Origin: Chiloscyllium plagiosum
Taxonomy: Eukaryota
Reading direction: 5' to 3'
DNA: 64,000 bases
Assembly (NCBI RefSeq): GCF_004010195.1
Contig: NC_057734.1
Coordinates: 45,271,605 to 45,335,604, forward strand
Part shown: positions 24,339 through 62,569 of the stretch, in pieces
Layout of the letters: each line of letters begins with the position of its first letter
Position numbering within the stretch: the first letter of the stretch is position 1
The notes under the pieces: model-generated
The model's input: the letters and a program-made list of their open reading frames with translations, nothing else
The model's database searches: none
Told to the model about the DNA's origin: nothing
Position numbers and translations under genes: made by a program

Positions 24339-24972
24339 GATTAGTGGTGCTGTAAGAGCACAGCAGTCTAGGCAGCATCCGAGGAGCAGTAAAATCCACG
24401 TTTCGGGCAAAAGCCCTTCATCGGGAATACAGGCAGAGAGCCTGAAGGGTGGAGAGGGAAGTGAGAGGAGGGTGGGGGTGGGGAGAAAGTAGCATAGAGT
24501 ACAATAGGTGAGTGGGGGAGGGGATGCAGGGCAGAGGAAATTACCTGGGAGTTGCAGTGGGAGAGGGACTCCCTGAGATCCTTGTAGAGAGAGGAGGATG
24601 TTTTTACCTTGTTGATTTTAACCCTACTGCGAATCCTCTTGCAAGGATGCCTGCCTTGAAGAAGTTTTCCTCCTCTCTCTCTCTACAAGAATCTCAGGGA
24701 GTCCCTCTCACACTGCAATTCCCAGGTCATTTCCTCTGCCCTGAATCTCCTCCCCCACTCACGCATTGTACCCTATGCTACTTTCTCCCCAACCCCACCT
24801 TCCTTTCACTTATCTCTCCACCCTTCAGGCTCACTGCCTTTAATCCTGATGAAGGGTTTTTGCCCGAAACGTCGATTTCGAAGCTCATCGGATGCTGCCT
24901 GAACTGCTGTGCTCTTCCAGCACCACTAATCCAGAATCTGGTTTCCAGCATCTGCAGTCATTGTTTTTACCT
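24339..24972. mobile_element. Penelope-like-derived inverted-repeat element inserted in the Ig C exon
   Basis: Perfect 15-bp TSD AGAGTCAGATAGCTG at 24324-24338 and 24973-24987; ~260-bp inverted arms with a ~70-bp spacer; extra tail on the right arm only. Confidence 0.9.
24842..24877 (+). ncRNA. Minimal type I hammerhead ribozyme motif
   Basis: AATC-CTGATGA-a-GGGT-tttt-GCCC-GAAA-C-GTC-GATT: intact core, helix I AATC/GATT, helix II 4 bp, palindromic ACGT helix III, GUC cleavage triplet. Confidence 0.8.
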
Positions 24973-25291
24973 AGAGTCAGATAGCTGCTCACACTGAACG
25001 TGTTGTCCGTCTCCTGCTGGATCCGACTGGCCTCTACACCGTTCCTCCTGACACTGCCATCTACCGTCCACTCAATTTCCACAGCGCCCGGGTTAAAACC
25101 GCTCACCAAACACACCAGGTCGCCGTGTTCTTTTCGGTGATTTGAACCGATGAAGGCGGAAGGAGGGAAACTGATGGTTCCCGCGGACCTGTTTAAAATA
25201 AATTAGGTTCATATGAGTTAAGGGACTGCGTCTTTTAAACAGGAAATTTCTTCAAAGATAATACAATTTAAAATATGTCCATCCATGGAGT

Positions 25292-25962
25292 AGTCATAGA
25301 GATGTACAGCATGGAACCATCCTGTCCATGCCCACCAGATACCCCAACCCAATCTAGTCCCACCTGCCAGCACCCAGCCCATATCCCTCCAAACCCTTCC
25401 TATTCATATACCCATCCAAATGCCTCTTAAATATTGCGATTGTACCAGCCTCCACCACATCCTCTAGCAGCTCATTCCATACACGTACCACCCTCTGCGT
25501 GAAAAAGTTGCCCCTTAGGTCTCTTCTATATCTTTCCCCTCTCACCCTAAACCTATGCCCTCTAGTTCTGGACTCCCCGACCCCAGGGAAAAGACTTTGT
25601 CTATTTATCCTATCCATGACCCTCATGATTTTGTAAACCTCTATAAGGTCACCCCTCAGCCTCCGATGCTCCAGGGAAAAGAGCCCCAGCCTGTTCAGCC
25701 TCTCCCTGTAGCTCAAATCCTCCAACCCTGGCAACATCCTTGTAAATCTTTTCTGAACCCTTTCAAGTTTCACAATATCTTTCCGATAGGAAGGAGACCA
25801 GAATCGCACGCAATATTCCAACAGTGGCTTAACCAATGTCCTGTACAGCCGCAACATGACCTCCCAATTCCTGTATTCAATACTCTGACCAATAAAGGAA
25901 AGCATACCAAATGCCTTCTTCATTATCCTATCTACCTGCGACTCCACTTTCAAGGAGCTATG
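25292..25962 (-). mobile_element. Young CR1 (HER1-like) LINE 3' fragment
   Basis: Open ORF2 C-terminus (25354-25960; LVKPLLEYCVRFWSP, RTRGH). Confidence 0.92.
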
Positions 25963-27073
25963 CATGAGTTTCAGTATATAGTTTAATCCGAGAAAGGTTA
26001 AAGGTGACAGACTGGTTGGGTTTTCGTTTTGAAGAAGCAAAGCTGACAGTCAATGATAAGCTGCAGTGATACATTGGGTAGGACCGAATTTACAGAGAAC
26101 AAAACAATTTATGCCTTTTCTAGTTTCTTAATGGCAGGCAGAATAACGCAATATCTACAACACTTTATACAGCTCCATGGCTCTCTATTGAGATATCAAG
26201 GTGCCGGCAACCATTAAATAGCATTATGAAAACATGAACCTATGTTAAATTTGTTCTGAAGTGCTATCATGTGAAGAAATTGTGATCCGTTTTATTATAA
26301 GTGATACAGTCAGCTTTTGCTCATGTAAAACAAGTAACTGATGGACATCTCCCATCTCTCCTTGGCATTACGATGGCATTACATCCTTACTAACAATAAC
26401 CATTGGATTACAGTTGAGAAGAAATTGAACTGGAGCAGCCATATGCAGGGCATAGACTGGGAAACTTGCAGCGAAATACGCACTTCCGATTCCCCTAAAT
26501 CTTGTCGGCCATTCAAATGCAGTTTCAACAGTACTCCAGCAGCTCCACGCCAGGCACCCCATTTACCATCTCAAACACTGTATCATGTACAAAATGTTTT
26601 GCATCAATTCACCAAGGGTTGGACAACTGCATCCTCTACCACCCGGAAGGACATGGATAGCAGATATGTAGGTATAAAACCGCCTGCAAGTTGCCTCCAA
26701 GACACACGCCAACCTGTTCTGGAACCATATTACCGTTTATTAATTGTGGCTGTTTCTAACTGCAGAAGCTCCCTCTACGTTTACACCCTCATGAAATCTG
26801 CTCGCCACCACGTTCTCCAGATCAATTAGGGATGGGCAATGGATGCTAACCGAGCCAGTGACACCGCCTTACACCAGCCTCCTCCACCCCTTCATGCCCC
26901 ACACTTTCCTCACCCCAACCCCGCCACACATACAGACACATCGCACGAAAGAATGAGTGATTAAGAAGGCATTTTTAATCCTGAAATCAACAGAGATGCC
27001 AACAGAAAAGTATAAATAGATTGTCCGCCCAGTAGCAGCCGTTTTACTCCTCCAACAAATCTTTAAATCTCAC

Positions 27074-27260
27074 GATTTGGAGATGTCGTTGGTGGACTGG
27101 GGTGTACAAAGTTAAAAATCACACAGCACCAGGTTATAGTCCAACAGCTCTAATTGGAAGCACTAGCTTTCGGAGCGCGGCTCCTTCAGCAGAAAGCTCC
27201 GGAAGCTAGTGCTTCCAATTAAACGTTTTGGACTATAACCTAGTGTTGTGTGATTTTTAA
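27074..27260. mobile_element. Short palindromic Penelope-like-derived element (AGCT hammerhead family)
   Basis: Inverted arms around ~27190; TSD ctt(t/a)aaatctcac at 27061-27073 and 27261-27273. Confidence 0.8.
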
Positions 27261-27899
27261 CTTAAAATCTCACCGATGCGCGCTCCTTGAATGGGAGATT
27301 TAGATCTATATTACCTCGAGCAAGAAGTATGTCTACAAGATGTTTTGCGGGGTTAGATTCCCAATTCCACTAACGCTGCACAGAATTGTAACTTTGATTG
27401 TGTTTTGCCCTTCGCTGATCACTGATATTGAAATAACCAGCAAATGAGATCAGATTCCCACAGCCTGTATGTAGTGCACATTCTCAATGCACTAAACTAC
27501 CTGAAAATGTCAATAACCGGAGTGCAATAGGATGAGGTATTTCGTGCTCCTGAGCTCACGCTCACCTCTGCGTTCATTTTAACCACACTCTGCGCTGCTT
27601 CACCAGGATTTGTTCAGTAAAGACCACGAAAAGTCCGGGCTGATTTCATTGCCCCGGGCTGATTTCATTGCCACCCTGCACACACCTCTTCAGATAAGTG
27701 TTTCCTGCCTTTTTTGTTGTCGTCTTGTGAAATCAAAGCTTTCCATTGGGTGCTCCGCAATTAGCCAACAGGCAACAAATGAAGCAATTCCTAGTTGCTT
27801 TAACTACACCCAACGCGTTCAGTTTTTCCATTGCAACTCAAAGCCGCTATATTCAATGCAACAATAGCCGCAGCTAACAAAGCTGGACTCCTAACATCT

Positions 27900-28200
27900 T
27901 CCACCCCTCCAAACACAATAAATACAGCGTCCCCCTTGTCCTCACTTTCCACTCCACCTGCATCCGCATCCAACGGATCATCCTTAAACACTTCCGCCAA
28001 TTCCAATTAGACCCCACCACTCAGAACATCTTCTCCTCCCCACCCCTCTCTACCTGCCGCAAGGACCGTTCCCTTTGCCAAACATTGGTTTGCACCCCAC
28101 TCCTCACCAACCTCCTGTGACAGCTACCCAATGAAGGAGCAGTGCGTTGAAAGCTGGTGTTTCCAAATAAACCTGTTGGACTGTAATCTGCTCTTGTGTA
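27900..28200 (+). mobile_element. Penelope-like element fragment
   Basis: Similar to 51790-51950 (PLVLTFH..RIILKHFRQ...DPTT); followed by a terminal-repeat remnant. Confidence 0.65.
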
Positions 28201-30654: not shown

Positions 30655-31355
30655 ACGTCACAAGGATTGGTGCTGGGTCTACTGTTTTTGGTCATTTATA
30701 TAAGTGATTTGGATGTGAACATAGATGGTATAGTTAGTAAGTTTGCAGATGACACCAAAATTGGAGGTGTTGTGGACAGCGAGGAGTACAACAGGATCTT
30801 GATCCAATGGGCTAATGAGTGGCAAATGGAGTTCAATTTGGATAAATGTGAGGTCCTGTGTTTTGGAAAGACAAATCAGGACAGGACTTATATAATTAAT
30901 GCTGAGAGTGTGTTGCTGGAAAAGCACAGCGGGTCAGGCAACATTCAAGGAGCAGGAAAATCAATGTTTCGGGCCAGAGCCTTTCATCATTCATCATGAT
31001 GGGCTCCCGCCCAAAATGTCGATTTTCCTGCTTCTCGGATGCTGCCTGACCCACTGTGCGTTTCCAGCAACACACTCTCAACTTGGATCTCCAGCATCTG
31101 CAAACCTCACTATCTCTTTATAAACTTAATGGTAAGATTCTGGGGAGTATTGCTGAACAAAGAGACCTTGGAGTACATAGTTTCTTGAAAGTGGAGGCAC
31201 AAGCAAAGAGGGTAGTGAAGAAGGCATTTGGTATGCTTTCGTTAAGTCGCATGTAGATGGGATAACAAAGTAGGCATTTGGTATGCTTTCCTTTATTTGA
31301 CAGAGCACAGAGTATAGCAGTTGGGAGGTCATGCTGTGGCTGTACAGGATATTGA
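30655..31355 (+). mobile_element. CR1 LINE RT fragment
   Basis: SKFADDTKIGG; interrupted by a palindromic element. Confidence 0.8.
30902..31117. mobile_element. Short palindromic Penelope-like-derived element
   Basis: ~90-bp inverted arms around ~30990; degenerate ~14-bp TSD ttata(ta/aa)(a/c)ttaatg at 30888-30901 and 31118-31131. Confidence 0.8.
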
Positions 31356-32334: not shown

Positions 32335-33905
32335 AAGAAGGATTATGTGATGGCTCATTTAGGGCGCTTGAGAGTTACAAGTTAGCCAGGAAAGACCTAA
32401 AGAGAGAGCTAAGAAGAGCCAGGAGAGGGCGTGAGAAGTTCTTGGTGGATAGGATCAAGGAAAATCATAAGGCTTTCTACAGGTATTTCAGGAATAAAAG
32501 AATGACTAGAGTAAGATTAGGGCCAATCACGGAAATTAGTGGGAAGTTCTGTGTGTAGTCAAAGGAGATAGGGGAAGCACTAAATGAATACTTTTTGTCA
32601 GAATTCACACTGGAAAAAGACAATGTTGTCGAGGAGAATACAGAGATACAGGCTGCTAGACTGGATGGGATTGAGGTTCACAAGGAGGAGGGGTTAGCAA
32701 TTCTGGAAAGTGTAAAAATAGACAAGTCCCTGGGCCAGATGGGATTTATCCCATGATTCTGTGGGAAGCCTTTGGCTTTGATCTTTATGTTGTCATTGTC
32801 TACAGGAAAAGTGCCAGACAACTGGAGGTTAGCAAATGTTGTTCCCTTATTCAAGAAGGGGAGTAGAGACACCCCTGGTAATTACAAACCAGTGAGCCTT
32901 ATTTTGGTTGTGGGTAAAGTGATGGAAAGGGTTATAAGAGATAGGATTTATAATTGTCTAGAAAGGAATAAGTTGATTAGGGGCAGTTATCGCGGTTTTG
33001 TGGAGGGTAGGTCACACCTCACAAACCTTACTGAGTTCTGTGAGAAGGTGACCAAACAGGTCGATGAGGGTAAAGCGGTTGATGTGGTGTGTATGGATTT
33101 CAGTAAGGCATTTGATAAGGTTCCCCAAGATAGGCTATTGCACAAAATACAGAGGCAAAGGATTGAGTGTGATTTAGTGGTTTAGATCAGAAATTGGCTA
33201 GCTAAAAGAAGACAGAGGGTGGTAGTTGATAGGAAATACTCAACCTGGAGTTCAGTTACTCATGTGTACCGCAAGGATTTCTTTTGGGGTCACTGCTGTT
33301 TGCCATCTGTAGATGAGCAGAGAGATCTCGGTGTCCATGCACATAGATCCCTGAAAGTTCCCACCTACGTTGATAGGGTTGTTAAGAAGGCATACGGTGT
33401 GTTAGCTTTTATTGGTAGAGGGATTGAATTTCAAACCATGAGGTCATCCTGCAGCTGAACAAAACTCTGATGTGGCCGCACTTGGAGTATTGCATACAGT
33501 TCTGGTCACCAAATTATAGGAAGGATGTGGAAGCTTTGGAAAGGGTTCAGAGGAGATTTACTAGGATGTTGCCTGGTATAGAGGGAAGGTCTTATGAGGA
33601 AAGGCTAAGAGGTGACTTAATTGAGGCATATAAGATAATCAGAGAGTTATATAGGTTGGGCAGTGAGAGCCTTTTTCCTCAGGTGGCAATGGCTAGCACG
33701 AGGGGGCATAGCTTTCAGTTGAGAGGTGATAGATATAGGACACATGTCAGAGGTAGTTTCTTTACTCAGAGAATAGTAGTGGCGTGGAACGCACTGTCTG
33801 CAACCATAGGAGACTCGCCAACTTTAAGGGCATTTGAATGGTCATTGGATAGGCATATGGACAAGAATGGAATAGTGTAGGATAGATGGGCTTCAGACTG
33901 GTTTC
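32335..33905 (+). mobile_element. CR1 LINE ORF2 fragment with internal deletions
   Basis: NYKPVSLI, MDFSKAFDKVP, PHLEYCIQFWSP. Confidence 0.9.
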
Positions 33906-34944
33906 TCAGCAGATATTCTAAGTAACACACAACTCATTAAAAAACACTAGATGAATATTCCTAACATAGGCTTCAGCTGCTTTCCCAAGTATATGGGTTA
34001 AATCTAACCATTTTTTGTCTAAATCTCATTTTCAGGAAGTTGACCAGGGGAATAAGATATTTAGCAATGACTAGGAATATACACCTATTTCTTATGTTTG
34101 TATGAAATCAGATTGCAATTTATGAGATGCCTATGTGATGAAAATGGTAATAAAATACTGAGTTTTTCTGTCCTGTTCAGAAAATATTCTAGTTAGAGTA
34201 GAGTACACTCTGCATTCATTTAATTGAATGACTGTAAACTTGTGCTCAGATTTCTGTGATATGACAATGAACCACAGCTAGCTGAAACATGTGCTGTCTG
34301 AACCCTATTATTTGACCAAAAATGTTGCCACATTTTCAAGCACCATTTAATAATGCTCCCAGGTGTGTATGCTGTTTACTTTGAATCTTCCAGAGTTTGG
34401 AGTATCTGTGTCCCCATCCCACTCTTTATCAGATACTGACTGAACATCAGTTGTACTTGTGCTATGGGCTCTGACTTCATCAAAGTCTTAAACCTCAGAA
34501 ATAATCGCTTAGTCTGCTGAAGATATGGGAATTTCATTTTGAACCTGATTGAAGCAAGTATTAGAGTCTGCTGAAGATATTTTCCTAATCAACCTGCAAT
34601 ACGTAATGATACATCTCTTGAACCCAGACCTTCTGACTAAGAGGCAGGGGCATTACCATTGTATCACAAGAGTCCCTCAACTCCAATGTTATCCTGAGGA
34701 AATTTCTGATTTAAGCACTGTAGGGCTTGACCAGGAAGTTTAGCGATCTGGAGACTTAATTTTGGTTTATATAGGCACTTTTTCTCAACTTACTCTGAAA
34801 CAAATTCAAAAATAAGTATAGATTCTATATCAAAATTAGAACACACGAAACTGGCTGGTAATTGTGGCGTTTTACAATCAGTAATTCCCCTCCCCTCAAT
34901 GACCGCTAGAGGGAGCCAGACTCTAGGAAATGGAAGGAGTAAAT

Positions 34945-35990
34945 GACTCAGATGCTGGATTTCGTACTGAAAACAACAAATGTGAGAGATCACAGCAGGT
35001 CAGACAGCATCCATGGAGAGAAAGCAAGCGAATATTTCGATCTAGATGTCTCTTTCTTAGAGCTGAAGTGAATTATGGAGGGGACAGCATTTATGCTATA
35101 GTTTGGGGGTGGTTGTGGGAGTAGTGGGTATAGGAGAAAAGAAGGGGGAGAAAATATGTTGACAGTTCAGATTCAGTAATCAGAATGTGAGAATGGCAGA
35201 GCAATGGTGTATCTAACTGACAGACTGGAAAGAACAGGCAGTCCCACTGGGGTAGAGGGAGGGGAGAGAGGACATGATAACAGAATGGAACATATAAAGC
35301 TAAAAGGGAAGAAATGGGAAAAGGTTCACAATTTGAAGGTGTTGAACTCAATATAGTGTTAAGTCCAGAAGGTTGTAAGATGCCTAGTCTAAGATGAGAT
35401 GTTGTTCTCAGTTTGTGTTGTGATTCACTGGAGCAATGCAGCATGCCAAGGACAGACTGCCTTCCATTTCTTTTAGCTTTACTCTGGCATCATGTCCTTT
35501 CTCCCTTCCCCCGACCCCGGTGGGACTGTCTGTTCTTTCCAGTTAGAGACAAAAAAACTGTGGATGCTGGAATCCAAAATAGACAGGCAGGAGAACACAG
35601 CAAGCCAGGCAGCATCAGGAAGTGGAGAAGTCGACATTTCAGGTATAACCCTTCTTTGGGTCCCAAAATGTCAACTTCTCCACCTCCTGATGCTGCCTGG
35701 TTTGCTGTGTTCTTCCAGCCTCCTGCCTGTTCTTTCTGGCAGTTAGACATACCATTGTTCTGCCCTTCTCACATTCCAGTCACTTAATCTGAACTATCAA
35801 CATCCCTTCTCTCCAAGCACCACACTACCATTACCGCCCCTGACCAAATTATAGCATTAATGCTGTCCCCACCACACATCACTTCACTTTAACTCTGGTG
35901 ATGAGTCACCTAGACTCAAAATGTTAGCTTGCTTTCTCTCATGGATACTGTCTGATTTGCTGTGATCTCCAGCATTTGTTGTTTTCAGTC
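34945..35990. mobile_element. Large inverted-repeat Penelope-like-derived element with a nested short palindrome (~35547-35730)
   Basis: 34965-35320 is the reverse complement of 35460-35990; the same family occurs at 44195-44988. Confidence 0.7.
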
Positions 35991-36279
35991 CAGGAAATGA
36001 CCTCCAGCTAAAGGAGGAAAATCAGGCAAGAATATTTTCTTCACCATAATCATCTAAATCCTTTCTTCGCATAGCTAGGTTGTAATTTCCAGAGGTATAA
36101 AGGTCCTGGTGAATTTCCTCTGGAAATATTCCCTTTACCATGATTATTTAAGTTTTAAGTATGCATGAATTTGTCATAAAATAGCTAGCAATCTATTTAT
36201 ACAAAGAATATAAAATACCCAGCGAAATAAATCTTGCAAATGAAGTGTAATTAGTTCTTACTTCTGAGAGAGATTTCTG

Positions 36280-39200
36280 GCATATCAGGGAGGGGGAGTG
36301 TTACCTGGACTCAGTGTTTCAGGAGGCAGTGATACTCCTTAGATTAACTACAGTCGTCAGGGACAGGAGGGTGTGACTATGAGTGAGGTGTTCAAGGGAT
36401 CCAGGAGATGCTGCTGAAGGAGCCTCAACCCTTGAGATTTTCTAACAGGTTTGAGATTCTTGCTCCCTGTACTGCTGAGAGCGGGAACTGAAGGGAAGAT
36501 GAGCAAACTAACCAAAGCACTATGGTTCAGGGAACCATTCAAGAGGGGAGAGTAAAGAGAAATGTAATTGTAATCAAGGATAGTATAGTCAGGGGAATAG
36601 ACATTGCTCTCTGTGGTCAGGATTGAGAGTCCTGAAGACTGTGTTGCTTACCTAGTTCGCGATATCTCATCTGGGCTGCAGAGGAACTTGGAGTGGGCGG
36701 AGAACTATCCAGTTGTAATAGTCTACATAGACACCAACCATATCAGTAGAAAGAGGAAAGAAGTTCTGCGGAGGGAAAATGAGCATCTAGGGGCTAAGTT
36801 AAAAAGCAGAACCACAAATGTAATAATCTTTGGATTATAACCTGAACCACAAGCTAATTGGCACAGGGTCAACAAGATTAAAGAGGCTGAAAGATTAGTG
36901 TTGGAGAAAGGGGTTCAAATTCATGGGACATTGGCACCAGTACTGGGGAAGGAGGGAGCTGTTCTGATGTTATGGGCTCCACTGGAATCATGCTGGGTCC
37001 AGTGTCCTGGTGAATAGTATAACTAAGGCTGCAGGTAGGGCTTCAAATTAAATAGTGGAGGGGGAGGGTTTAAATACATGGAAAGTTATGGAACAAGGGA
37101 GCGGGATAGGGCTCAGCAGAGATTATTAATTTTACCAGAACAAGTAATAGGACAGAGAGTATGGAAATGCTCAGGAATCTAAATTTCAGGCATAGCAGAC
37201 AAGAGGACAACTGTGAGAAAGGGGGCAGTCAATGCAGGACTGAGGGTGTTGCACTTAAATGCATGCAGTATATAAAACAAGGTAAATGAGCTTGTACTGC
37301 AGATGGAAATCACTAGGTACAATGTTGTGGTCATCACAGAGACTTGGCTGCAAGGAGATCAGGATTGGGAACTAAATTGATTGATTGGTGCAGTTATTGT
37401 CCCACTTTTATTTGCAAATACAGTGAAAATATTGTACAATGTCAGCATAAAAATAGAAGTTCAACATTATAGTCATTCATAAGTACATAGCCTTGGGCCT
37501 GGATTCAGGCTCTTCCACCCCAACATGAAGCAGTCAGCTAGCCTGGAGTACCTTCGTCATGCCACTGCTGCAGTACAGTTGCCATTCGTCAGTGCCATCT
37601 TGACTCTACTGTTGCCACTGCCCACCCTGAGTCTGCACTGGGCTAATCTCAGCAATGCAGCCCTTGCTGAAGTTGCCGAGTCTCATACCAGACACTCAGC
37701 CCAAACCCGCCTCCCTCTGACACCCCTGTGAACACAACACAAACTCAACTCCCCCCACCGCTGGAGGGAACACAATCTTGCCTCCGATGCACTGGACCCC
37801 TCGATACCGTCAGAGCTCTGAAAACATTCTGAGCTCCTTAAATCTTCAATGGGCTTACAAAATTAAAACTCACACAACACCAGGTTATAGTCCAACAGGT
37901 TTAATTTGACGCATTAGCTTTCGGAGCGCTGCTCATACATCAGGTGGTGATGAAGAAGCAGCGCTCCAAAAACTAGTGCTTCCAATTAAACCTGTTGGAC
38001 TATAACCTGGTGTCATGTGATTTTTAATTTTGTACACCCCAGTCCAACACCGGCATCTGCATTCACATGGCAACTACACCAAAGAATACACATCCTATTG
38101 CAGGGACAAGCAGATGGGCAGAGGGGCGGGGTTGCCTTGTTAGTAAGACATGAAATTAAATCAATAGCAAGAAGTGATATAGAATCAGAAGGCGTAGAAT
38201 CTGTGTGGGCAGAGTTGAGAAACTGCAAAGGGAAAAACGACCCTGAAGGGAGATATGTACGGGGTCCCGAGCAGAAGTCAGGATATGGGACAGAAAATAA
38301 GTCATGACATTAAAAAGGCATGTAAGAAAGGCACTATTATAATAATCAAGGGTGACCTCAATCTGGATTGGGATAATTAGGTTGCAGCAGGTCCGAAATA
38401 AAAGAATTTCTGGAATGCCTATGAAATGTTCTTGGGGCAGCTTGTGGAAGAACCCACTAGGGAAGAGGAAATTCTGGATTTGTTGATGTGTAATGATGGG
38501 GACTTGATTAGCGAGCTTAAGTTAAGGTGAACAAACCCCTGGAGGCAGGGCAGTGACCGTAATATAATAGAATTCAACCTGCAGTTTGAGAGGGAGAAGC
38601 TGAAATCAGATGTAATGGTATCAGAATTGTATAAAGGTAATCTAAACAGGATGAGGGATTCTCAGAGTTGGTTGGAATGGCAGTCTAGCAGGAAAGACAG
38701 TGGAGCGGTAATGACAGGAGTTTCTGAGGGTAAATTGGGAGGCAGAGCAGAAATTCATCCCAAGGAAGAAGAAACCTACTAGCAGGAGGAATAGGTAACT
38801 ATGGCTGACAAGGAAAGTATAAAAGCAAAAGAAAAAGGATACAGTGTGGTGAAGATCAGTGGGAAGTCTTTAAAAACCAGAAGAGGATAACTGAAAAAGC
38901 AAAAGGAGGAGAAGATGAAATATAAGGGTAAGTGGCTAGTAATATAAGAGAAGATTGGAAGAATATTTTTAGATATGTATAAGGTAAGAGAGAGAGAGAG
39001 AGGCAAGAATGGAGTTGGGGCCACTGGAAAATGAGGCTGGAGAAGTAGTAATGGGGAACAAAGAAATGGTGGAGGAACTGAATAGGTACCATGCATAAGT
39101 CTTCATGATGGAAGGCCCCAGTAACATACCAGAACTTCAAGAGAGTCGGGTACAGAGGTGAGTGGCAGTCACTAAAGAGAAGGTACTGGGATAGCTAACA

Positions 39201-42825: not shown

Positions 42826-42947
42826 ACTGAAAGCAAGGAAGTTATCTTAACCTTTTTAAAATCATTGATTGGACAAAATATTGTTTTCAGTTTTGGCAAT
42901 CACACTTCTAAAACGATAACAAGGCTTTGAACGAGCCAACTTTTAGT

Positions 42948-43164
42948 AAGTTAAAAAGTCACTTTGGTTAAGTCACCTGTTAAACCAACAGGTTTAATTG
43001 GAAGCACACTAGCTTTCGGAGCACCGCTGTTTCGTCAGGTGATTGTGAAGGAGCGATGCTCCGAAAGCTAGTGCTTCCAATTAAACCTGTTGGACTATAA
43101 CCTGGTGTTGTGTGATTTTTAACCAGAATTACACCCTAGTCCAACACCGGCATCTCCAAATCAT
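42948..43164. mobile_element. Short palindromic Penelope-like-derived element (AGCT hammerhead family)
   Basis: TSD aacttttagt at 42938-42947 and 43165-43174. Minus strand 43041-43007 reads cac-CTGACGA-..agc ggt gct..-GAAA-G-CTA-gtg. Confidence 0.8.
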
Positions 43165-43779
43165 AACTTTTAGTCATGTAGGGAGACCAGAGAACTGGGA
43201 GATTTCCCTCTAAGAGCAGTGAAGGTTCACACAAGTTTATTAGATGTCCAAAATCATGAAGCATTTTGGTGCATAAATAAGGTAAACCTATTTCTAATGG
43301 GAAATTTGAAATGATCTGGAATGCGTTGCATAGAATGGTAATAGAAACTAAATTGGTATTAAACTTTGAAGGGAATTGTATAAGTACATGACAGGCAATG
43401 CGAAATGCAAGTATCTATATAGCTCTTTTAAGCAGCTGGCACAGGAATGATTGCAAAGTGACTTTCAGTGTCATATCGTTGTGTCTCTCTTTGTTTCACT
43501 GCCAGTTGTTCCTTGACAGGGTGACATACATTTGTGAAAGTTGGCCAAGAATTTCCTTGTGGGTTCTCTCAATTCATACCAAACTGCCACAGACACCCCT
43601 GGCAAAAAAAAATTTACTTTATTTTATCATGAAAATGGCCTTTGCCTAATACAGTTGGTGCGAGCCTCTCAGTTGGATCGTATTAGCGTCAAGATTCATT
43701 CCATGGGCTTGAACACAAAATTTATATGTGGGAGTTGCAACCCATTTGATCAGTCTTTGAACTGCAGCACAGGCCACTT

Positions 43780-44190
43780 TGCCAGGTGGAGTGAAAGATT
43801 GTAACAACACTAATCAATGAACAGGAGATGAAGACTCCACAAATATCCCCATCCTCACTGATGGAGGAGCCCAGCAAATCAGTGCAAAAGAGAAAACTGA
43901 AATATTGGCATTGGTCCTCAGCCGGAAGTGCCAAGAAGATGAGCTAACTTGACCCTCTCCTCGTGGCCCCAATAATTTCATTCACTTCACAGGATAATAA
44001 GAAATGGCTGAAGACATTGAATACTACAAATGCTATGGGCCTTGCTAATGTTCTGGCAATAGTAGTGAAGACTTGTGTTCCTAACTGTGCACTTAACCAG
44101 TTGTTTCAGTACAACTATAACATTGGCAACACAAGAAAATTGCCTAAATATGTCCTGTGCACAAAAAGAACAATAAATCCAACCCAGGTA
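43780..44190 (+). mobile_element. LINE ORF2 fragment (L2/CR1 group)
   Basis: KKWLKTLNTTNAMGLAN..VVKTC..LNQLFQY, the region preceding an RT domain. Confidence 0.6.
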
Positions 44191-44194
44191 GGAG

Positions 44195-44988
44195 CAAGTT
44201 ACTGCAGATGCTGGAATCTATACTGAAAACAAAAGATACTAGTGATTACAGGAGGTCTGGCAGTATCCATGGAGAGAGAACAAGCTAACGTTTCAATTCC
44301 AGATCTGACATGAAGTGTGGAGAGGGCAGCATTTCTGCTATAGTTGGGGGATGGGCGAATGGGAGAGAAGAATGGTGACAGAGAACGTAACAATTCAGCC
44401 AGAAGAAACAGAAGACAGTCTGTGCTTGGCATGCTGCAGTGCTCCAGTGAATCGCTGAACAAACTGGAGAACAACATCTCACCTTACAACATTCAGGACT
44501 TAATATTGAGTTCAACGCCTTCAAATTGTCAACCATTTCCCATTTCTTCCCTTTCTTTTAGCTCTAACTGTTACATTCTGTTATCACGTCCTCTCGGTCC
44601 TCCCCCCACCCCAGTGAGTCTGTCTGTCCTTTCAAATCTGACAGTTAGACACACCATTGTTCTGTCATTCTCATATTCCAATGACTTACATTCTGTTATC
44701 ACGTCCTCTCGGTCCTCCCCCCACCCCAGTGAGTCTGTCTGTCCTTTCAAATCTGACAGTTAGATTGTTCTGTCATTCTCATATTCCAATGACTTAATTT
44801 GAACTATGAATATTCTTTGTCCTCCAACACTCCACCTCCCCACACCCCACACACACACACATACACACACAAAATTAAATGCTGTCCTTTCCACACCTCA
44901 CATTAACTCGAGTGAAGAGTCATCTGGACTCAAAATATTAGCTTCCTCTCTCTTCCCATGGATACTGCTTGACCCACCGTGATCTCCA
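44195..44988. mobile_element. Inverted-repeat Penelope-like-derived element with an internal ~115-bp tandem duplication
   Basis: Same family as 34945-35990; 44571-44688 is repeated at 44686-44797. Confidence 0.7.
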
Positions 44989-45600: not shown

Positions 45601-46896
45601 TTGATTCAGTGGAAGTATCCAAAATAACATGATCACCTGGCTGGGATAGAGAGTGCTTTCCTTTTACTTTACTATTCAGTTAAGTGCACCTCAGATGTGC
45701 ACTTGTGATGCCAAAGTATACAAGCTGATAGGTTAATGCTGGAAAATGAGATTTGAATAGTAAAATGGTGCTGTTGACCAGCACAAATGCATTTGGTGAA
45801 TGGGCCTTTTTCTGTTCTGTAGGTTTTTCAGATTCTATGATTCTAAGTGAAATCCCCACTTTTGGTATAATGGGATGTTTGTTCTCAAAACGTTAATAAA
45901 AATTACAGAAGAAAATAACAAGAATAAAAATATCCAAAGTGTACAGAACGTTTTGGGAAATGGAAAAATAGAGTTAGGCTATTCCAGCACATTATTACCT
46001 TCCAGATATCACACCCAGGTGTTTACAACACCTACACTAAATAACTGTATACATTCATATACAGCCTTTCAGCTGTTCAACTCTTTAAGAAGCATAGTTG
46101 TTGTCACAGAGTCATCCAGAATGGAAATCGACCTTTCGGTCCAATTCATCCATGCTGACCATGTTTCCAAACTATAGGAGTCCCACTTGGCATCGAAGAT
46201 TGAACCCAGTATGTGGAAAGAATGCACCATTTTTTCTGGGCAAATGACACTGGGGCAGACAAAAACAACAAGCAATTCTCTTGACAGCATGTAGACCCAC
46301 AGCTTTTTTGGTTATTGGGAGCCTAACATTGCCTGAGGCACCAGATATTAAAACCTTTCAAAAGTTGACAACTTTAGTTCAGGAATATTATGACTTCAAG
46401 CCTCTTCTAACTCTGAGATGCTATCACTTTTACTCTGCATTTCAAGTACGGGGGAACCATATTGGGATTTTTGACGAGGTTAAGATAACTGGCAGAGGCA
46501 TGTGATTTTGGTTTAACCCTAGATGAGTTGCTGAGAGACCATTTGATATGAGGGATTAATGATGTGACCATGCAGAAGTGCCTACCAGCTGAAAACCAAC
46601 TGAACTTCAAACAGGCACTACTACTAGTTTTGTCATTAGAAAATGCAACAAATGGAGCTCATGAGTTGCAGAGCATTCTGAAGGACATGTATACCCTTGG
46701 CAGGGTGACTGAGCATGAATGCAAACAGTTGCATAGCCTCACTCAGGACGTATCCTGAACAGAAGGACTCTAGGTCAGCCTACAATAAAACCCCAAAATA
46801 AAGCCATTCCTCAGTCAAATGGTTAAAATTTTCTTCAGGATCTGGGCCACAGGCCATTGTAGTTACTGCCGGTATGTGGATTCAAGATAGCAAAAG

Positions 46897-47119
46897 TTGA
46901 AACTTTATTGCTGGAACAGCACAGCAGGTCAGGCAGCATCCAGGGAACAGGAGATTCGACGTTTCGGGCACAGGTCCTTCTTCAGGAATCATTCCTGAAG
47001 AAGGGCCTGTGCCCGAAACGTCGAATCTCCTGTTCCCTGGATGCTGCCTGACCTGCTGTGCTGTTCCAGCAATAAAGTTTCAACTTTGATCTCCAGCATC
47101 TGCAGACCTCACTTTCTCC
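46897..47119. mobile_element. Young near-perfect palindromic Penelope-like-derived element
   Basis: 97-bp arms (46893-46989 / 46991-47087) with 1 mismatch and a 1-nt spacer; perfect 15-bp TSD TCAAGATAGCAAAAG at 46882-46896 and 47120-47134. Confidence 0.92.
46991..47026 (+). ncRNA. Minimal type I hammerhead ribozyme motif
   Basis: ATTC-CTGAAGA-a-GGGC-ctgt-GCCC-GAAA-C-GTC-GAAT: intact core and fully paired helices I and II. Confidence 0.82.
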
Positions 47120-47327
47120 TCAAGATAGCAAAAGACATCCCACCAGGTCTGAATTGAGTAAGAAAACTCAGAGATCAGTATCCAGGAGACTGCAGGAACT
47201 GGAACAGTTCAATTGTTTAGCAACATCTAAATCTGAACCAATCAAAATAAACATCTGGTTAAATGGTCACCAGGTTCTCATGGCAGTTAATCCCAGTGAT
47301 GCAGATCCTGTCTTGACCAAAATTCAA

Positions 47328-49243
47328 ATAGTCTTCAGGTACCTTGGATGAGTATGCCACCACCATCACAGACTTTATCAGCAAGTGTGTGGAGGACTAC
47401 GTACCAAAGAAGTCAATCCAGGTGTTCCCCAATAGGAAACCTTGGATGAATCAGGACACACAGAACCTGCTAAAAACCGAGCATGAGTCCTTCAATCAGG
47501 AGACCCACTCAAATATGAGGAATCCAAGTATAACCTTTGCAGAGCCATTAAGACAGCCAAGGACCAATACTGATCCAAACTAGAGACCCTGATGGACACC
47601 TGGCAACTATGGCAAGGACTGAATGACATCACAGGTTCTAAAAAGAGACAGTGCAAGGTAGCAGATGATGACATATCCCTCCCAGATCGTCTCAACGCCT
47701 TCTATGCTCGCTTTAAACAAAATTTCGGCCAAGAGGTAACACCTATTCCGACAAGTCCTGATGAACCTATCCCAACAGTTACTACATCAGAGGTCAGATC
47801 AGTTTTCCTTCGTGTGAATCCAAGGAAAGCGATGGGACCAGATGGAGTATCAGGCTGTGCACTCAGAGCACGCACAGATCAACTGATCAAGAGGTCTTCT
47901 CAGACATCTTCAACCTCCCCCTGCAGCAGGCCACTGTCCCTGCTTGTTTCAAGAGGCCAACATCATCCCTGTGCCTGAGAAGGCTCATGCAGCATGTCTC
48001 AATGACTACCGCCCAGTGGCCCTAACTTTGGTGGTGATGAAGTAAGTGCTTTGAAAGGCTAGTCATGGTAGTAATCAACTCCAGCCTTCCCACTACTCCA
48101 GGTCGCCTATTGGACTGACAGATCCATGTCCAATGCCATATCACTTGCCCTTCACTCAACCCCAGAACATCTTGATGCCAAGAACAGCTACGTAAGTATC
48201 CTACTCATTGACTACAGTTCATCCTGCAACACTATTATCGCCTCGAGACTGATTACTAAGTGTAGTGATCTCGGAATAAGCCCCACTCTCTGCAACTGGA
48301 TCCTCAGTTTCCTGACCCACAGGCCACAATCAGTGAAAATTGGAGACAATATTTCATCGTCACTACCACTCAACACTGGAGCCCCCCAGGGGTGCGTACT
48401 CAACCCCCTACATTGACCATGCAGAAGTGCCTACCAGCTGAAAACCAACTGAACTTCAAACAGGCACTACTACTAGTATACCCATGATTGCGTCGCCAAA
48501 CACCAGACTAATGCCATTTACAAGTTCGCTGGTGACACCACCATAGTCGGTCAAATCTCAGACAGCGATGAAACAGACTACAGACGGGAGGTGGGAAGAC
48601 CTGGAAAAATAGTGCACTGAGAACAACCTAGCTCTCAATGCTGGCAAAACCAAGGAACTCATTATTAACTTTCGGCAGGATGTTACTCATGCCCCCCCTA
48701 CACATTAACAGCACAGAGTTGGAACGAGTGGAGAGTGTCAAGCTCCTGGGAGTGGTCACCCACAACAAGCTTTCTTGGACTCTTCATGTGGACACATTGG
48801 TTACAAATGCCCAACAATGTCTCTTCTTCCTCAAGCAGCTGAGGAAATTTAGCATGACGGCAAATATCCTTGCCAACTTTTATAGGTGCGCCATCAACAG
48901 CATTCTGTCTGGATGTATCACTACCTGCTATGACAACTGTACCATTCAAGATCGGAGACGGATACAGAGAGTGGTGAACTTGGCCCAGACAATCACAAAG
49001 GCCAACCAAGAACACACACACCAGCCAATTTCGCAACAGTTTCTACCCTACTGCTGTTGAATACTGAATGGACTCACAAACCCCTAACGTTCGCCTGTAC
49101 CTGTGTTTTTGTTTTTGCCACTAATTACCTATTATTTACTATCTATGCTACTTAACTATGTGATCTGCCTGTATTGCTCGCAAGATAAAGCTTTTCACTG
49201 TGCCCTGGTACATGTGACAATAAATTCAACTCAATTCAATTCA
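47328..49243 (+). mobile_element. Rex1/Babar-type LINE, 5'-truncated, inserted in the Gypsy protease region
   Basis: FPNRKPWMN, KAMGPDGV, NDYRPVALT, GAPQGCVLNP, KFAGDTT motifs; tail aataaa(ttcaa)n. Confidence 0.85.
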
Positions 49244-51082
49244 CTCTGGAATCCAACCCTTAAGTTTTCATAAGACCTCGGCCAGGCTGAGAACCTGTAT
49301 GGGGAACCTTTAAAGAGTAAGGATGCAACTTTAGTCCTAGTCTCTTCTGAGAAGCAGCTTGTTCAGTTACCACTGATTGTCATAAAAGGCTCAGGCCCAA
49401 GCCTGATGGGATAAAATTGGTGGAGAAACATTCAACTTGATTGGCTCAAGATTTTTCAATTAGAAAATGGCTGCCTGAGTGAAATCTTAATTATAGTTTT
49501 CTGGAAAGCCCAGGGATATCAAAGGAGGCAAGGCCACCTTACACGTTGACCAGGAAGCAATTCCATGATTCTGCAAGCACCAAGCAGTGCCATTTGCCTT
49601 ATGTGGAAAAGTAGAGGTAGAATTCAGGAGTAAACCACTTTTTGCAGCTGCATAAATACCCAATCCCTTGGATAGAGGACTTATATGTAAAACTGGCAGG
49701 GGAATTGTCCTTCACGAAGCTGGACTTGAGCCATACATATCTGCAATTATGATTAGATGAGGATTCCCAGAAGTATGCTCCAATTAATAGCCATAAGGGT
49801 TTATACCAATGTATAAGACTGCCTTTGGGATTTTATCAGCCTGTGGCATTTTCTGGTCGACAATGGAGAACATTATACAATGTCTATCCGAGGTGCTAAT
49901 AACCAGGAAGACCAATAAAGGGCATGTAGAGAACTTGGACAGGTTGCTTAAACGTTTCTCCGAGTTGGGTGCACGCCTTAGGAGGGAAAACTATGTGCTC
50001 CAGGCACCCCAAGAGACCTACTTAGGCAACAGAGTCGACAGACCAGGTTATACCCCTTGGACGATGAAGTGAGGGCAATCAAAAATGTTCTGGCTCTCAC
50101 TTCTGTACCATGGCTTAGGTCTTTCTAGGATTTGTGGGTAAATACAAAGCTTCATACATAACCCAGTCTCCATCTTGGCAGCCTTATACCCGCTATTGTA
50201 AAACGGACAGTCTTGGAAAAGCTCTTGTAGCCAAGAAGTAGCCTTTAAGGAAGTGAAGCAGCTTCTATCCTCATCCAAGGTATTGGCACATGACAATCTC
50301 AAGTGAGGTGTGGTGCTGACATGCAATGCCTCCCCATATGGTATCAGGGTAATGTTGGCTCACCGGTGATGTAGCAGTGGAGGAATGCCTGATAACGCAT
50401 GCTTTCTGGACTTTGGCTGATGCTGATGAAAAGTTTATGCTTGAAATGTCGACTCTCCTGCACTTCAAATGCTGTCTAACCAGCTGTGGCCTTCCAGCGC
50501 CACACTCTTTGACCCTGAATGAAAATATCTCCAGATAAAGATGGAAGGTTTGGCAGCCATTTTTGGTGTACAAACGTTCCACCAATAACTTTGTGGATGT
50601 AAATCTGTAATAGTAATGGACCACAAACTCCTGCTAGGGTTACTCAAACAGGACAGGCCTGTGCTGCCCATAGCTTCCGGTGAAATTCAGCGGTGGATTC
50701 TTATTCTGAGAAAGTACAATTTCAAATTGGAACACTGTCCAGGAGGCCAAGTGACAAATGCAGATGTCTTGAGGGACTTCCCACTGGCGGGTATATCACC
50801 AGTTGCACCACCACTAGAAGAGTCCATTCTGATTTTAACCTTTCTGGACACCCTTCTGGTCACTGCTGACAATATCAGACCATGAAGACAAAAAGATCCC
50901 ATTCTGGCAAAACCAGAACAGCTACTGGTGATGGGGGAAACAAAAGGGCTGTCACAATTAGGATTAAAACCTTTCTGGACCTGGTGAGACTAAATCAGTG
51001 CAGAGGATGGTATATTACTATGGGGAGCAAGAGTGATTGTCCTGAGCAAAGGTTGCTGCCAGATATTGGCTGAAATCCACCA

Positions 51083-52516
51083 AGGTAAAAACAATGACTG
51101 CAGATGCTGGAAACCAGATTCTGGATTAGTGGTGCTGGAAGAGCACAGCAGTTCAGGCAGCATCAAAGAAGCAGCGAAATCGATGTTTCGGGCAAAAGTC
51201 CTTCATCAGGAATAAAGGTAGAGAGCCTGAAGCATGGAGAGATAAGCTAGAGGAGGGTGGGGGTGGGGAGAAAGTAGCATAGAGTACAATAGTCTCTTTG
51301 TTGGCTATGTAGAACAGTTGATCTTCCGTAATTACACCGGCACCACTCGCCACCTTTTCCTCCGTTACATTGATGACTGCATTGGCGCCACCTCGTGCTC
51401 CCGCGAGGAGGTTGAGCAATTCATCAACTTCACCAAAACATTCCACCCTGACCTTAAATTTACCTGGACCATCTCTGACACCTCCCTCCCCTTCCTGGAC
51501 CTCTCCATCTCCATTAATGACGACCAACTTGCCACGGACATTTTTTACAAACCCACCGACTCCCACAGCTACCTGGATTACACCTCTTCCACCCTACCTC
51601 CTGCAAAAATGCCATCCCATATTCCCAATTCCTCCAACTCCGCTGGATCTGCTCCCAGGAGGACCAGTTCCACCACAGAACACACCAGATGGCCTCCTTC
51701 TTTAGAGACCGCAATTTCCCTTCCCACGTGGTTAAAGATGTCCTCCAACGCATCTCGTCCACATCCCGCACCTCCGCCCTCAGACCCCACCCCTCCAACC
51801 ATAACAAGGACAGAACGGCCCTGGTGCTCACCTTCCACCCTACGAACCTTCACATAAACCAAATCATCCTCCGACATTTCCGCCACCTCCAAAAAGACCC
51901 CACCACCAGGGATAGATTTCCCTCCCCACCCCTTTCCGCCTTCCGCAAAGACCNNNNNNNNNNNNNNGGACGTCTCATAGCAGAGCACTTTAGGGAACAT
52001 CTCTGGGACACCAGCACCGATCAACCACACCGCCCTGTGGCCTAACATTTCACCTCCCCCTCCCACTCTGCCAAGGACCTAGAGGTCCTGCGCCTTCTTC
52101 ACCGCCGCTCCCTCACCACCAGAAGCCTGGAGGAAGAATGCCTCATCTTTCGCCTCTGAACACTTCAACCACAGGGCATCAATGTGGACTTGAACATTTT
52201 CCACATTTCCCCTTCCCCCACCTCACCCCAGTTCCAAACTTCCAGCTCAGCACTGTACCCATGACTTGTCTTACCTGTCTATCTTCATTTCCACCTCTCA
52301 ACTCCACCCTCCCCCCGACTGCCACCTTCATCCCCTCCCCCACTCACCTATTGTACTCTGTGCTACTTTCTTCCCACCCCCACCCTCCTCTAGCTTATCT
52401 CTCCACACTTCAGGCTCTCTGCCTTTATTCCTGATGAAGGGCTTTTGTCTGAAATGTCAATTTCGCTGCTCCTTAGATGCTGCCTGAACTGCTGTGCTCT
52501 TCCAGCACCACTAATC
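51083..52516 (+). mobile_element. Penelope-like element (RT + GIY-YIG remnant) with ~170-bp inverted terminal arms, inserted in Gypsy integrase
   Basis: LRYIDDCIG (RT catalytic motif), LPFLDL, FYKPTDSHSYL; 51122-51291 is the reverse complement of 52348-52516; duplication ctgaaatccacca(aggt) at 51070-51086 and 52517-52533. Confidence 0.92.
51954..51967. other. Assembly gap (14 N)
   Basis: Run of N. Confidence 1.
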
Positions 52517-52614
52517 CTGAAATCCACCAAGGTCATCCAGGGATTTCCAAAATGAAGATGTCGGTGAAAAGTTCTGTCTGGTGGCCAAGATTGGATACCA
52601 ATGTAGATGGTAGT

Positions 52615-60114: not shown

Positions 60115-60728
60115 GGAGAGCTGAAAGACGTTTGCTGTGAGCAAGGAAGAGAAAGTTACACGCGTGAAACGCTAGAGTTGTACCCTGGTGTGAAATAGTA
60201 TTCCATAATGGAAGAACTATTATTTAATGCTCTTCTCTGAAGAAAATCGAAATTATTTTAATATATGAATTATTTTCGTTTAATTTTAAAACGTGACTGC
60301 CAGGTTATGGGGTATTCTGCAATATTTGTAGGTGACTAATATCATACATAAACTGGCAGCTAACTCGGTCATTGGGCTGCCTATTATATGTAGGCAGTGC
60401 TATCCGAGCTGTCCTTTTATAAAGGAATGTCAGTGATGTGTTGTGAGTAGTCTTTTCACTGAGGGCTGTCTGTATCTTTTTTAAAAGGAAGTGCCTTGAG
60501 TGTATGCTGATGTACCAGTATGCAGACGAGTGTCATAGAGTGCCTTGCATTATCGTGAGTTTTTCAACATTTAAAGATCAATCGGTTCGATTATTCCTTG
60601 TGTATTGTTAGTGTGACAGATATTTTACTCTATTCCATTTCGTAATGTTCCCTGCGTATTACAGGAATTTGCTGCTTGTATTATCTCCTGCACATTGATG
60701 CAAATTCTTCTTTGGCTATCTAAATGCT

Positions 60729-60835
60729 AGGAGAAAATGAGGACTGCAGAAGTGCTTATGCCCGTTATGTAGATTCTCCTGCTCCTCGATGCTGCCTGGC
60801 TGGCCGTGCTTTTCCAGCACCACATTCTTCGTCTC
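60729..60835. mobile_element. Internally deleted palindromic Penelope-like-derived element downstream of the hes5 stop
   Basis: Tail ggagaaaatgaggactgcag plus one arm; flanked by ctatcta(a)atgc repeats. Confidence 0.6.
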
Positions 60836-61063: not shown

Positions 61064-61769
61064 TGATTGCATTGACAATTCCTTCTCTGTGTCTAAGTGA
61101 ATGTATGTTAAGCAGTCCGTAATCCGTTTATAATTGGCAATTACACCTGTGCCACTAAAAGTCAAAACAGCTGAGATATGCTTATAAGGTATTTTTAGTG
61201 CAGATTTCCCACAACCAACACCAGTCATATTTATGTCTGTATATTATATTGATTTATTTAGGTAATTTCTCATTTTTATTGCTTAAATTAATGCCGTTTG
61301 TGTCTTTTAATGACACTTCATGTAAAATCTATCAGGCATGACTGATTGGGGGAGTGAATCAGTGTTCAGCTGCTAATTGCTGCCAATATTTTGACAGAGC
61401 GGATTAGCATAGAGTCCCGGTGATAGCACATACCTTACTCTCTGTCTCATATTTTCTGTTCAGTTCTTGTTGCTTGCAGTAATTTCTTCATTATTAGCAT
61501 CATTTTATTCCAACAAGTAAGGATATATTGTGAGACAGTGGTAATGTCCCTACCTCTGGGACAGAAGGCACAGGTTGAAGTCTCACTGGCTTTAGTTTTG
61601 TGTGCTAACAGATCTGAACACGTTAATTATCATATCAATTACCACAAGCAAATTCACATTAAACAATTATTAGTTAATTAATCCTGAGTTGAGGCAAAAT
61701 TTGTATCGCATTCATGAGTTAACCTTTCAATATTTGACTTGACATGTACACAATTACCACATTAAGGGT

Positions 61770-61990
61770 TGAAAATGTGTTGCTGGAAAAGCGCAGCAGG
61801 TCAGGCAGCACCAAGGAGCAGGAGAATCGACGTTTCGGGCATAAGCCCTTCTTCAGGAAGGGCCCTGAAGAAGGGCTTATGCCCGAAACATCGATTTCCC
61901 CTGCTCCTTGGATGCTGCCTGACCTGCTGCGCTTTTCCAGCAACACATTTTCAGCTCTGATCGCCAGCATCTGCTGTCCTCACTTTCTCC
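61770..61990. mobile_element. Short palindromic Penelope-like-derived element with hammerhead cores
   Basis: ~90-bp arms around ~61860; perfect 15-bp TSD TACCACATTAAGGGT at 61755-61769 and 61991-62005; CTGAAGA-aGGGC ttat GCCC-GAAA on both strands. Confidence 0.9.
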
Positions 61991-62569
61991 TACCACATTA
62001 AGGGTAGACCTGGATTTCATAGAGGAAAAGACAAATGTGGAAACTGATAGAAACTCAAATATATCCTCAAAAGTTTAATGCAAGCGTCATTCAGTTTTGT
62101 AGGGTTAAACTGGGCCTGCAGAGTTTTACAGTAGAGTCTGTGTTTGGCTTTGGAGGAGGGGGATGGGGCAACTCATTAAGAGACATAACTTGATAAGACT
62201 AAGAGAATGATTCGACATAGCTAATTGACTGAATGCACATACTTGGAAATGTACATCCACAACAAACATACTAAGTAAGGGCAGAAGTAGACATTCAGCC
62301 CCTCGAGCCTAAACCACTATTCAATCCGGTCATGGCTGATCTATTTGTATTTTGAATTTCACGTTCCCATTACCCTTGATTGCCTTGCCTAAGAGAAATT
62401 ATCCACCTCTGTCTTTAAAATATTTGAAGACATTGCCCCCAGAGTGTTCCATAGTCCCATAACACTTTGAGAGAACATAATTCTGCTCATCTCTGTCCTG
62501 AAAGGGCATGCATTTAAGATCACAGATTATGAGAGAGAGGGCCCTAATGGAAATGACACAGGGCAAATA

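Follow-up and report, generated by a model that had tools for sequence, protein, structure and literature searches.

The window, a 64,000-nt stretch of Chiloscyllium plagiosum contig NC_057734.1, carries a short palindromic insertion near position 46990. The two arms (46893–46989 and 46991–47087, 97 nt each) differ by a single mismatch at 46975, and the axis at 46990 can be described either as a 1-nt spacer or, if the right arm is taken to start at 46989, as a 1-nt microhomology. An exact 15-bp direct repeat (46882–46896 and 47120–47134) forms the target-site duplication (TSD). The final 4 nt of its left copy are also complementary to the right arm's end and so overlap the left arm, which leaves 46897–47119 (223 nt) as the insert proper. 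A 32-nt tail (47088–47119) is present on one side only, and no ORF of at least 120 aa in the window's ORF list overlaps the insert. The first-pass annotation had described 97-bp arms with a 1-nt spacer and one mismatch, a one-sided tail of about 30 nt, a 15-bp TSD, and no ORF, and each of these features was borne out. The element is embedded in an older dispersed repeat (46500–46881 and 47135–47330). The features of the focal insert are as follows.

46882–46896, plus strand: left TSD, 15 bp (direct-repeat match)
46897–46989, minus strand: inverted pLTR arm without a tail, carrying a minimal hammerhead on the minus strand (palindrome and motif)
46990, unstranded: axis, or head-to-head junction (palindrome and loose ends)
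46991–47087, plus strand: tailed pLTR arm (palindrome and homology)
46991–47026, plus strand: minimal type I hammerhead without helix III (motif search with the PMC4209133 descriptor)
47088–47119, plus strand: Penelope tail, 32 nt, its end a sharp family boundary (loose read ends)
47120–47134, plus strand: right TSD (direct-repeat match)

Reads were aligned to a 501-nt stretch at 82% likeness in 4 of 24 runs, comprising three DNA runs (50,433, 32,392, and 34,726 contigs aligned, the first of these counts pointing to very many copies in the genome) and RNA run X21 (3,007 raw reads, drawn from ∼2% of a poly(A) single-cell library run). The tail end was sharp at 47118–47121 in all four runs; 307, 953, and 247 contigs of DNA run X1 came loose behind 47119, 47120, and 47121, respectively, and at 47120 the numbers were 519 in run X5 and 991 in run X9. 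Loose read ends were also found at 46989–46991, around the axis. At 46975, 53 of 79 RNA reads had the right-arm letter yet were positioned on the left arm, which reads as molecules that span an axis and as palindromes being present in the raw reads. The folded insert RNA had a predicted energy of −195.2 kcal/mol (z = −27), which none of 200 shuffles equaled. The focal palindrome is real and beyond chance. Across the diagnostic stretch of the focal subfamily (47070–47085), the summed depth, which is not a copy number, was 930,911 and 672,103 in the runs of organism A; in organism B it was 25,664 at 47073, ∼30-fold lower, with 70% of it showing another letter. The contrast suggests a recent lineage-specific burst of the focal subfamily, and it agrees with the near identity of the focal arms.

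The RNA reads continued into unlike sequence in 97% of cases, as expected of copies that lie inside host transcripts, and no place where many RNA molecules begin was seen in the reads of the poly(A) single-cell library. Within 46897–47119, places with A>G plus T>C versus C>T plus G>A changes numbered 68/66 in RNA and 44/88, 46/79, and 45/89 in the DNA runs, a contrast (Fisher p = 0.004, 0.025, and 0.006) drawn against unmatched DNA with different units and stretch; it hints at A-to-I editing of inverted copies. For the host repeat around the element, ∼100 contigs per DNA run shared other letters and a few skipped the insert. Flank translations yielded nothing of use. A joint from 46896 to 47135, the form of an empty site, was not among the 15 joints listed (387 further), and none of the pieces listed extends across the locus. 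A joint from 46849 to 47200, whose intervening sequence is not known, occurred in 4, 3, and 5 contigs and hints at paralogous host-repeat copies without the insert.

The ribozyme assignment was made by motif search with the minimal-hammerhead descriptor found in the accessible portion of PMC4209133. Helix I is formed by 46991–46994 (5′ strand) and 47023–47026 (3′ strand), the CUGAnGA box (46995–47001) is followed by an unpaired A (47002), stem II (47003–47014) is followed by GAAA (47015–47018), a self-complementary ACGT lies at 47018–47021, and the predicted cut falls after 47022. The core boxes, a 4-bp helix I, the G10.1–C11.1 pair of stem II, the extra base before stem II, a palindromic 15.2–16.2, and the lack of helix III were all found, and the last four of these are likewise described in that portion of the paper. 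It also reports motif pairs on opposite strands 100 to 700 bp apart, most of them ascribed to truncated Penelope-like elements (PLEs), whereas here the distance between the two motifs is ∼50 nt and stem II is 4 bp long; the organisms named in the part available do not include sharks. In the minus-strand copy, one stem II pair is broken by the mismatch at 46975. The hammerhead core pattern had 11 matches in the window versus 0.02 expected. An Rfam search of the focal insert gave no hammerhead match; its four hairpin matches (three miRNA and one snoRNA) were all below the gathering score and were taken as chance. Metagenome scans with two hammerhead patterns gave 0 matches for each.

When folded as a single arm, the sequence was no better than its shuffles (z = −0.4), with stem II predicted to form and helix I not. 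In read-through RNA the ribozyme is predicted to be completely paired within the −195.2 kcal/mol structure, as the first-pass annotation had anticipated in proposing that a long hairpin masks it. This masking probably does nothing, because a hammerhead without helix III needs a partner and cleavage was dispensable for insertion in vitro in the accessible portion of PMC11167929.

The first-pass annotation had pointed to six further sites of the same architecture, and all six proved to be palindromes of the focal form, giving seven in all from three sequence families. The six sister copies are listed below.

61755–62005, unstranded: family-A sister, axis ∼61860, 4-nt filler, 15-bp TSD (palindrome)
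30895–31135, unstranded: older family-A palindrome, axis ∼30991, imperfect TSD, within a LINE fragment
27065–27275, unstranded: family-B palindrome with its tail on the left, axis ∼27186
37850–38065, unstranded: family-B palindrome, axis ∼37945
42938–43174, unstranded: family-B palindrome, axis ∼43040, 10-bp TSD
35530–35745, unstranded: third-family palindrome, axis ∼35653 (palindrome), nested in the pLTR of an older Penelope-like inverted insertion (34922–35999)

Clear TSDs of 15, 15, and 10 bp accompany the axes at 46990, 61860, and 43040, those at 27186, 35653, and 30991 are short or imperfect, and no convincing TSD was found at 37945 or 44187; in other copies the lengths were 9 to 17 bp. 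Measured from the start of helix I, with the family-A spacing of 24 nt applied to all families, the seven axes lie at −0.5, 0, +1.5, +1.5, +3, +9.5, and +12 nt. Plotting axis position against the hammerhead, as had been suggested, thus revealed a nonrandom placement. The original wording, an axis within a few nucleotides of the core, holds for five of the seven (−0.5 to +3 nt) and fails for 27186 and 35653 (+9.5 and +12 nt), the two palindromes that also lack the CUGAnGA box in the second arm. Among the 12 inverted insertions of the window, a count that leaves out a decayed remnant at ∼1700–1830, seven have their axis within a stretch of ∼13 nt; with the chance set at 0.1 or 0.2, the binomial p comes to 5e-5 or 0.004, under a null that we chose ourselves and with one window as the sample. 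The axes truly cluster, though not without exception, and they do so away from the ribozyme cut. All seven fall 20 to 33 nt upstream of the position where the ribozyme would cleave, and cleavage was accordingly rejected as the axis-setter. We conclude that the ribozyme is a passenger and that no cutting takes place at the axis. Stalling of RT at the ribozyme is unlikely, since both arms reach or nearly reach the 5′ core box in five of the seven. An intron that ends at helix I, as described for Drosophila virilis in the accessible portion of PMC4209133, was considered as well and set aside; there is no AG at that place in families A or C.

Longer copies with related ends are present in the same window.

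51070–52533, plus strand: long form with a tailed inverted pLTR (∼210 nt), a 5′-truncated RT/GIY-YIG ORF remnant, and a tailless pLTR, 17-bp TSD
24324–24987, unstranded: long palindromic form with a 15-bp TSD, both arms reaching at least ∼200 nt upstream of the hammerhead
60725–60830, unstranded: inverted tail piece (∼22 nt) and tailless arm without overlap, TSD-like flanks
21026–21991, plus strand: decayed remnant of the ORF 3′ part (CxxC linker, GIY-YIG) and, after it, a tailed pLTR whose hammerhead core is deleted

The long inverted insertions at 24336, 34922, 44187, and 51083 have 461 to 1261 nt between their two GAAA anchors; together with 60725 they are the five inverted insertions whose junction falls outside the cluster near helix I. 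Copies in the window grade from stubs into ORF-bearing elements whose tailed and tailless ends are the same (24336, 34922, and 51083). Over 65 nt, the focal arm shares 72% to 85% identity with arms from four other copies, including two long forms. Remnants were located by tblastn at 21026–21873, 27902–28111, and 51255–52249, each directly upstream of a hammerhead-type arm. The RT remnant at 51279–51584 is 90% to 92% identical to Chiloscyllium punctatum proteins among the matches listed (120 of 265, from 300 candidates), and the 51070–52533 long form also retains a GIY-YIG C-terminal remnant. On the basis of this homology of the arms to copies with RT/GIY-YIG remnants upstream of hammerhead-type arms, the focal arms are assigned as Penelope-like pLTRs. 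The protein homologues P0011, P0037, and P0043 have a CX2-5CxxC linker and a CxxC inside GIY-YIG, the longer homologues also have RT and GIY-YIG, and both cysteine motifs occur in decayed form at 21454–21873. Pfam assigned 0 families to three ORF fragments of the window, and the GIY-YIG matches on the homologues were below the curated cut-off. Such a linker between RT and endonuclease marks the Neptune and Nematis clades (PMC8557442, in the portion available). Judged by sequence, the parent is probably an endonuclease-bearing Penelope-like element of putative Neptune type, as read from the linker. For the focal subfamily itself, the window yielded no ORF-bearing or autonomous copy. Two runs of N, 428 positions together, start at 41741 and 51954; the latter interrupts the 51083 element at the expected location of the linker and the beginning of GIY-YIG. 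An old inverted repeat at 1365–2142 (arms ∼1365–1513 and ∼1988–2142, 71% alike) surrounds the decayed hammerhead-type remnant at ∼1700–1830.

The first-pass annotation had also proposed that identical axis junctions among copies would speak for replication as a unit and unique ones for formation per insertion. The outcome was divided: the junctions were mostly diverse, which favors assembly at each insertion, and two forms recurred in the three DNA runs. The form with 3 letters out at 46988 was seen in 15, 11, and 9 contigs and in 3 of 102 RNA reads, and the form with 4 letters out at 46989 in 14, 13, and 12 contigs and in 1 of 290 RNA reads; both were found in two organisms with large summed depth. 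Besides these, there were 15 listed and 387 further joints and 12 listed and 271 further fillers, some of which will be alignment breaks of other subfamilies. Anchor spacings were 24, 29, 42, 45, 45, 48, and 49 nt with differing centers. The three family-A copies have three different centers, and the family-B copies at 37945 and 43040 share the 45-nt spacing and have alignable centers.

We interpret the focal insert as a young, short Penelope-like insertion of Neptune type, in which a tailless and a tailed hammerhead-bearing terminal repeat were likely joined head to head at insertion and which was likely dead afterward (probability roughly 0.75). That it is a Penelope-like stub formed at insertion, with self-priming included among the possible routes, is highly probable, and double priming is the probable route. 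According to the accessible portion of PMC11167929, the protein of the Poseidon element PAc of Anolis cuts and extends both strands in vitro, RT begins at two internal sites that bound the tail, and product length tracks the template's 5′ end. By analogy, one target strand would prime at the tail end and the other ∼30 nt upstream, at two such internal start sites; both cDNAs would extend until they met a shared 5′ end of the RNA close to helix I, and their ends would be joined by a short microhomology or filler. This single route could yield the palindromes, the asymmetric 51083 form, and the nonoverlapping 60725 form, and read-through RNA from tandem copies would add more upstream sequence in the long forms. 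The asymmetric copies (∼0.2 kb versus 1.2 kb in 51083; no overlap in 60725) fit two independent primings. The recurrent 46988 and 46989 forms are what the joining of two cDNAs ending at or beside 46991 would give.

The common 5′ end near helix I would most simply be a transcription start, a proposal that we hold tentatively and place slightly short of an even chance. The focal axis falls on an initiator-like motif (consensus YYANWYY) with its A at 46991. The same motif occurs at the same place in family C (24842 and 52427), and no full fit was found in families B and D. We give the match little weight because the motif is frequent upstream (10 occurrences in 605 nt of natural upstream sequence of family C, ∼1 per 60 nt) and because helix I pairing constrains the same bases. 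An internal promoter within the pLTR is described for Penelope in the available parts of PMC2377424 and PMC8557442.

The best-surviving rival, which we nonetheless consider unlikely, is that the palindromes are non-autonomous hairpin elements, with a few masters giving transcripts that the Penelope protein copies in full in trans. It would account for the recurrence of two junction forms in each of the three DNA runs, the second organism included, and for the shared spacing and alignable centers of 37945 and 43040; recurrent junctions and shared spacing also fit replication from master palindromes. There are precedents in the accessible portions of the literature, in that pLTR-flanked cargo is movable in trans (PMC3846280), non-autonomous PLEs exist (PMC8557442), and retrozymes have been proposed as PLE derivatives (10.64898/2026.07.22.740005). 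The recurrent forms are, however, rare in raw reads next to hundreds of other joints, and the family-A centers all differ. Short and long forms have their tailless end at roughly one position, which would be expected of an RT start site and not of a transcript 5′ end. Moreover, the pLTR sequence farther upstream, the likely seat of promoter elements, is missing from a stub, and a hairpin of −195 kcal/mol is predicted for the stub's RNA. The separate non-autonomous system envisaged in the first-pass annotation is not upheld, as its architecture is the published ordinary Penelope insertion form and there is a continuum to ORF-bearing copies. A bolder version, to which we give marginally less credence, would have some shark palindromes as master elements whose hairpin RNA, with the hammerhead locked by its antisense copy, is retrotransposed whole by a Neptune-type protein; if true, these would be a MITE-like class of RNA-based fold-back elements, and the junction forms recurring in two organisms would be subfamilies.

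Self-priming is a second, improbable rival to double priming, in which one cDNA (or an antisense template) snaps back, copies itself, and stops ∼30 nt short. This route has been proposed for Adineta Penelope elements (PMC3846280, in the portion available), but the second RT start site of PMC11167929 accounts directly for the fixed position of the tailless ends, again as far as the accessible text goes. It is also formation at insertion and shares most of its evidence with double priming, and the common subfamily of both arms of one element and the near-symmetric junctions are in its favor. In three of four tabulated copies each arm had its own partner as the closest match, the exception being the right arm at 24336, which is nearer to 51083 (0.89 versus 0.86). 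Self-priming or gene conversion would account for this closeness no less well than double priming on one RNA would. The arms of 60725 do not overlap, so one could not have been copied from the other without later deletion, and the asymmetric 51083 form raises the same difficulty.

A third possibility, that long inverted insertions later lost their centers by cruciform or hairpin deletion with breakage favored at the ribozyme, had been raised in the first-pass annotation and is very improbable. Inverted repeats are unstable, and long palindromic forms are indeed present in the window (24336 and 34922). Against this, a single mismatch in 97 nt and an exact TSD mark the focal copy as very young, older long forms with 75% to 92% arm identity are still long, and the junctions are mostly diverse. 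A deletion at the DNA level has no reason to target one RNA-motif position in three dissimilar families, and the lone arms at 50443 and 57240, with decayed 5′ edges, appear to start at about the same place. A short, noncoding inverted repeat could also be a DNA-transposon MITE or an assembly artefact, but we regard both as negligible given, for the former, the one-sided tail, TSDs of 9 to 17 bp in place of a fixed short length, and arms homologous to PLE pLTRs, which sustain the earlier argument for retrotransposition, and, for the latter, the arm mismatch, the exact TSD, and the raw reads on the axis.

The double-priming reading has a parallel in L1 twin priming, in which a single insertion, primed at two places, carries an inverted segment within one TSD. 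The 60725–60830 copy resembles that outcome; the L1 segments lack overlap, whereas here the overlap is usually almost full and a palindrome results. Among PLEs, the insertion unit of endonuclease-bearing elements is described in the accessible portions of PMC3846280, PMC8557442, and PMC8969392 as including an inverted 5′-truncated copy, a pLTR, a one-sided tail of 30 to 40 bp, and a TSD. The focal insert resembles it (PMC3846280 and PMC8557442) in its hammerhead pLTR, head-to-head inverted copy, one-sided tail, variable TSD, and junction palindrome and differs in that the whole insert is only ∼220 nt, has no ORF, and belongs to a set whose junctions cluster at the start of helix I. Neither this clustering nor PLE palindromes in sharks were reported in the literature searched, of which coverage was partial and which excluded Repbase and Dfam. 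Poseidon PAc shares with the shark copies a tail bounded by two internal RT start sites and the cutting and extension of both strands, and its hammerhead lies upstream of the start sites and is unneeded for insertion. It belongs to a different clade, the shark relatives having the CX2-5CxxC linker, and the inverted junction is not modeled in the available part of PMC11167929. Non-LTR retrozymes, as presented in the accessible text of 10.64898/2026.07.22.740005, are likewise short, noncoding, hammerhead-bearing, and PLE-related. They bear type I hammerheads and take the form of monomers or direct tandem repeats, whereas the focal insert is an inverted pair with a PLE tail, and a retrozyme assignment was rejected on that basis.

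We conclude that the focal insert is an ordinary by-product of a known Penelope insertion form and is real and young; the useful lead is that the junction position may mark the 5′ end of the element's RNA. The value of the palindromes is as a record of how Penelope-like elements make inverted ends. Such Penelope debris could be mistaken by repeat annotators for MITEs or microRNA hairpins, and a large load of near-perfect 90-bp intronic hairpins may matter for dsRNA handling in sharks, where editing is only hinted at.

Two further observations concern the surroundings and the tail. Decayed LINE-type RT/endonuclease frames occur at 5750–8620, 17330–18670, 25350–26050, 32750–33880, and 47570–49060, putatively CR1-like and others by their motifs. 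A pyrimidine tract closes the tail in three or four PLE families, and several copies have YAG there, as in a 3′ splice site; these tail ends lie at the positions below.

47100–47121: pyrimidine-tract tail end
24950–24974: pyrimidine-tract tail end
51083–51105: pyrimidine-tract tail end
34922–34955: pyrimidine-tract tail end
44184–44210: pyrimidine-tract tail end

The RT start site and the end of an intron may fall at one position, in which case the templates would be unspliced RNA. In all three DNA runs, the loose ends behind 47120 start with AG.
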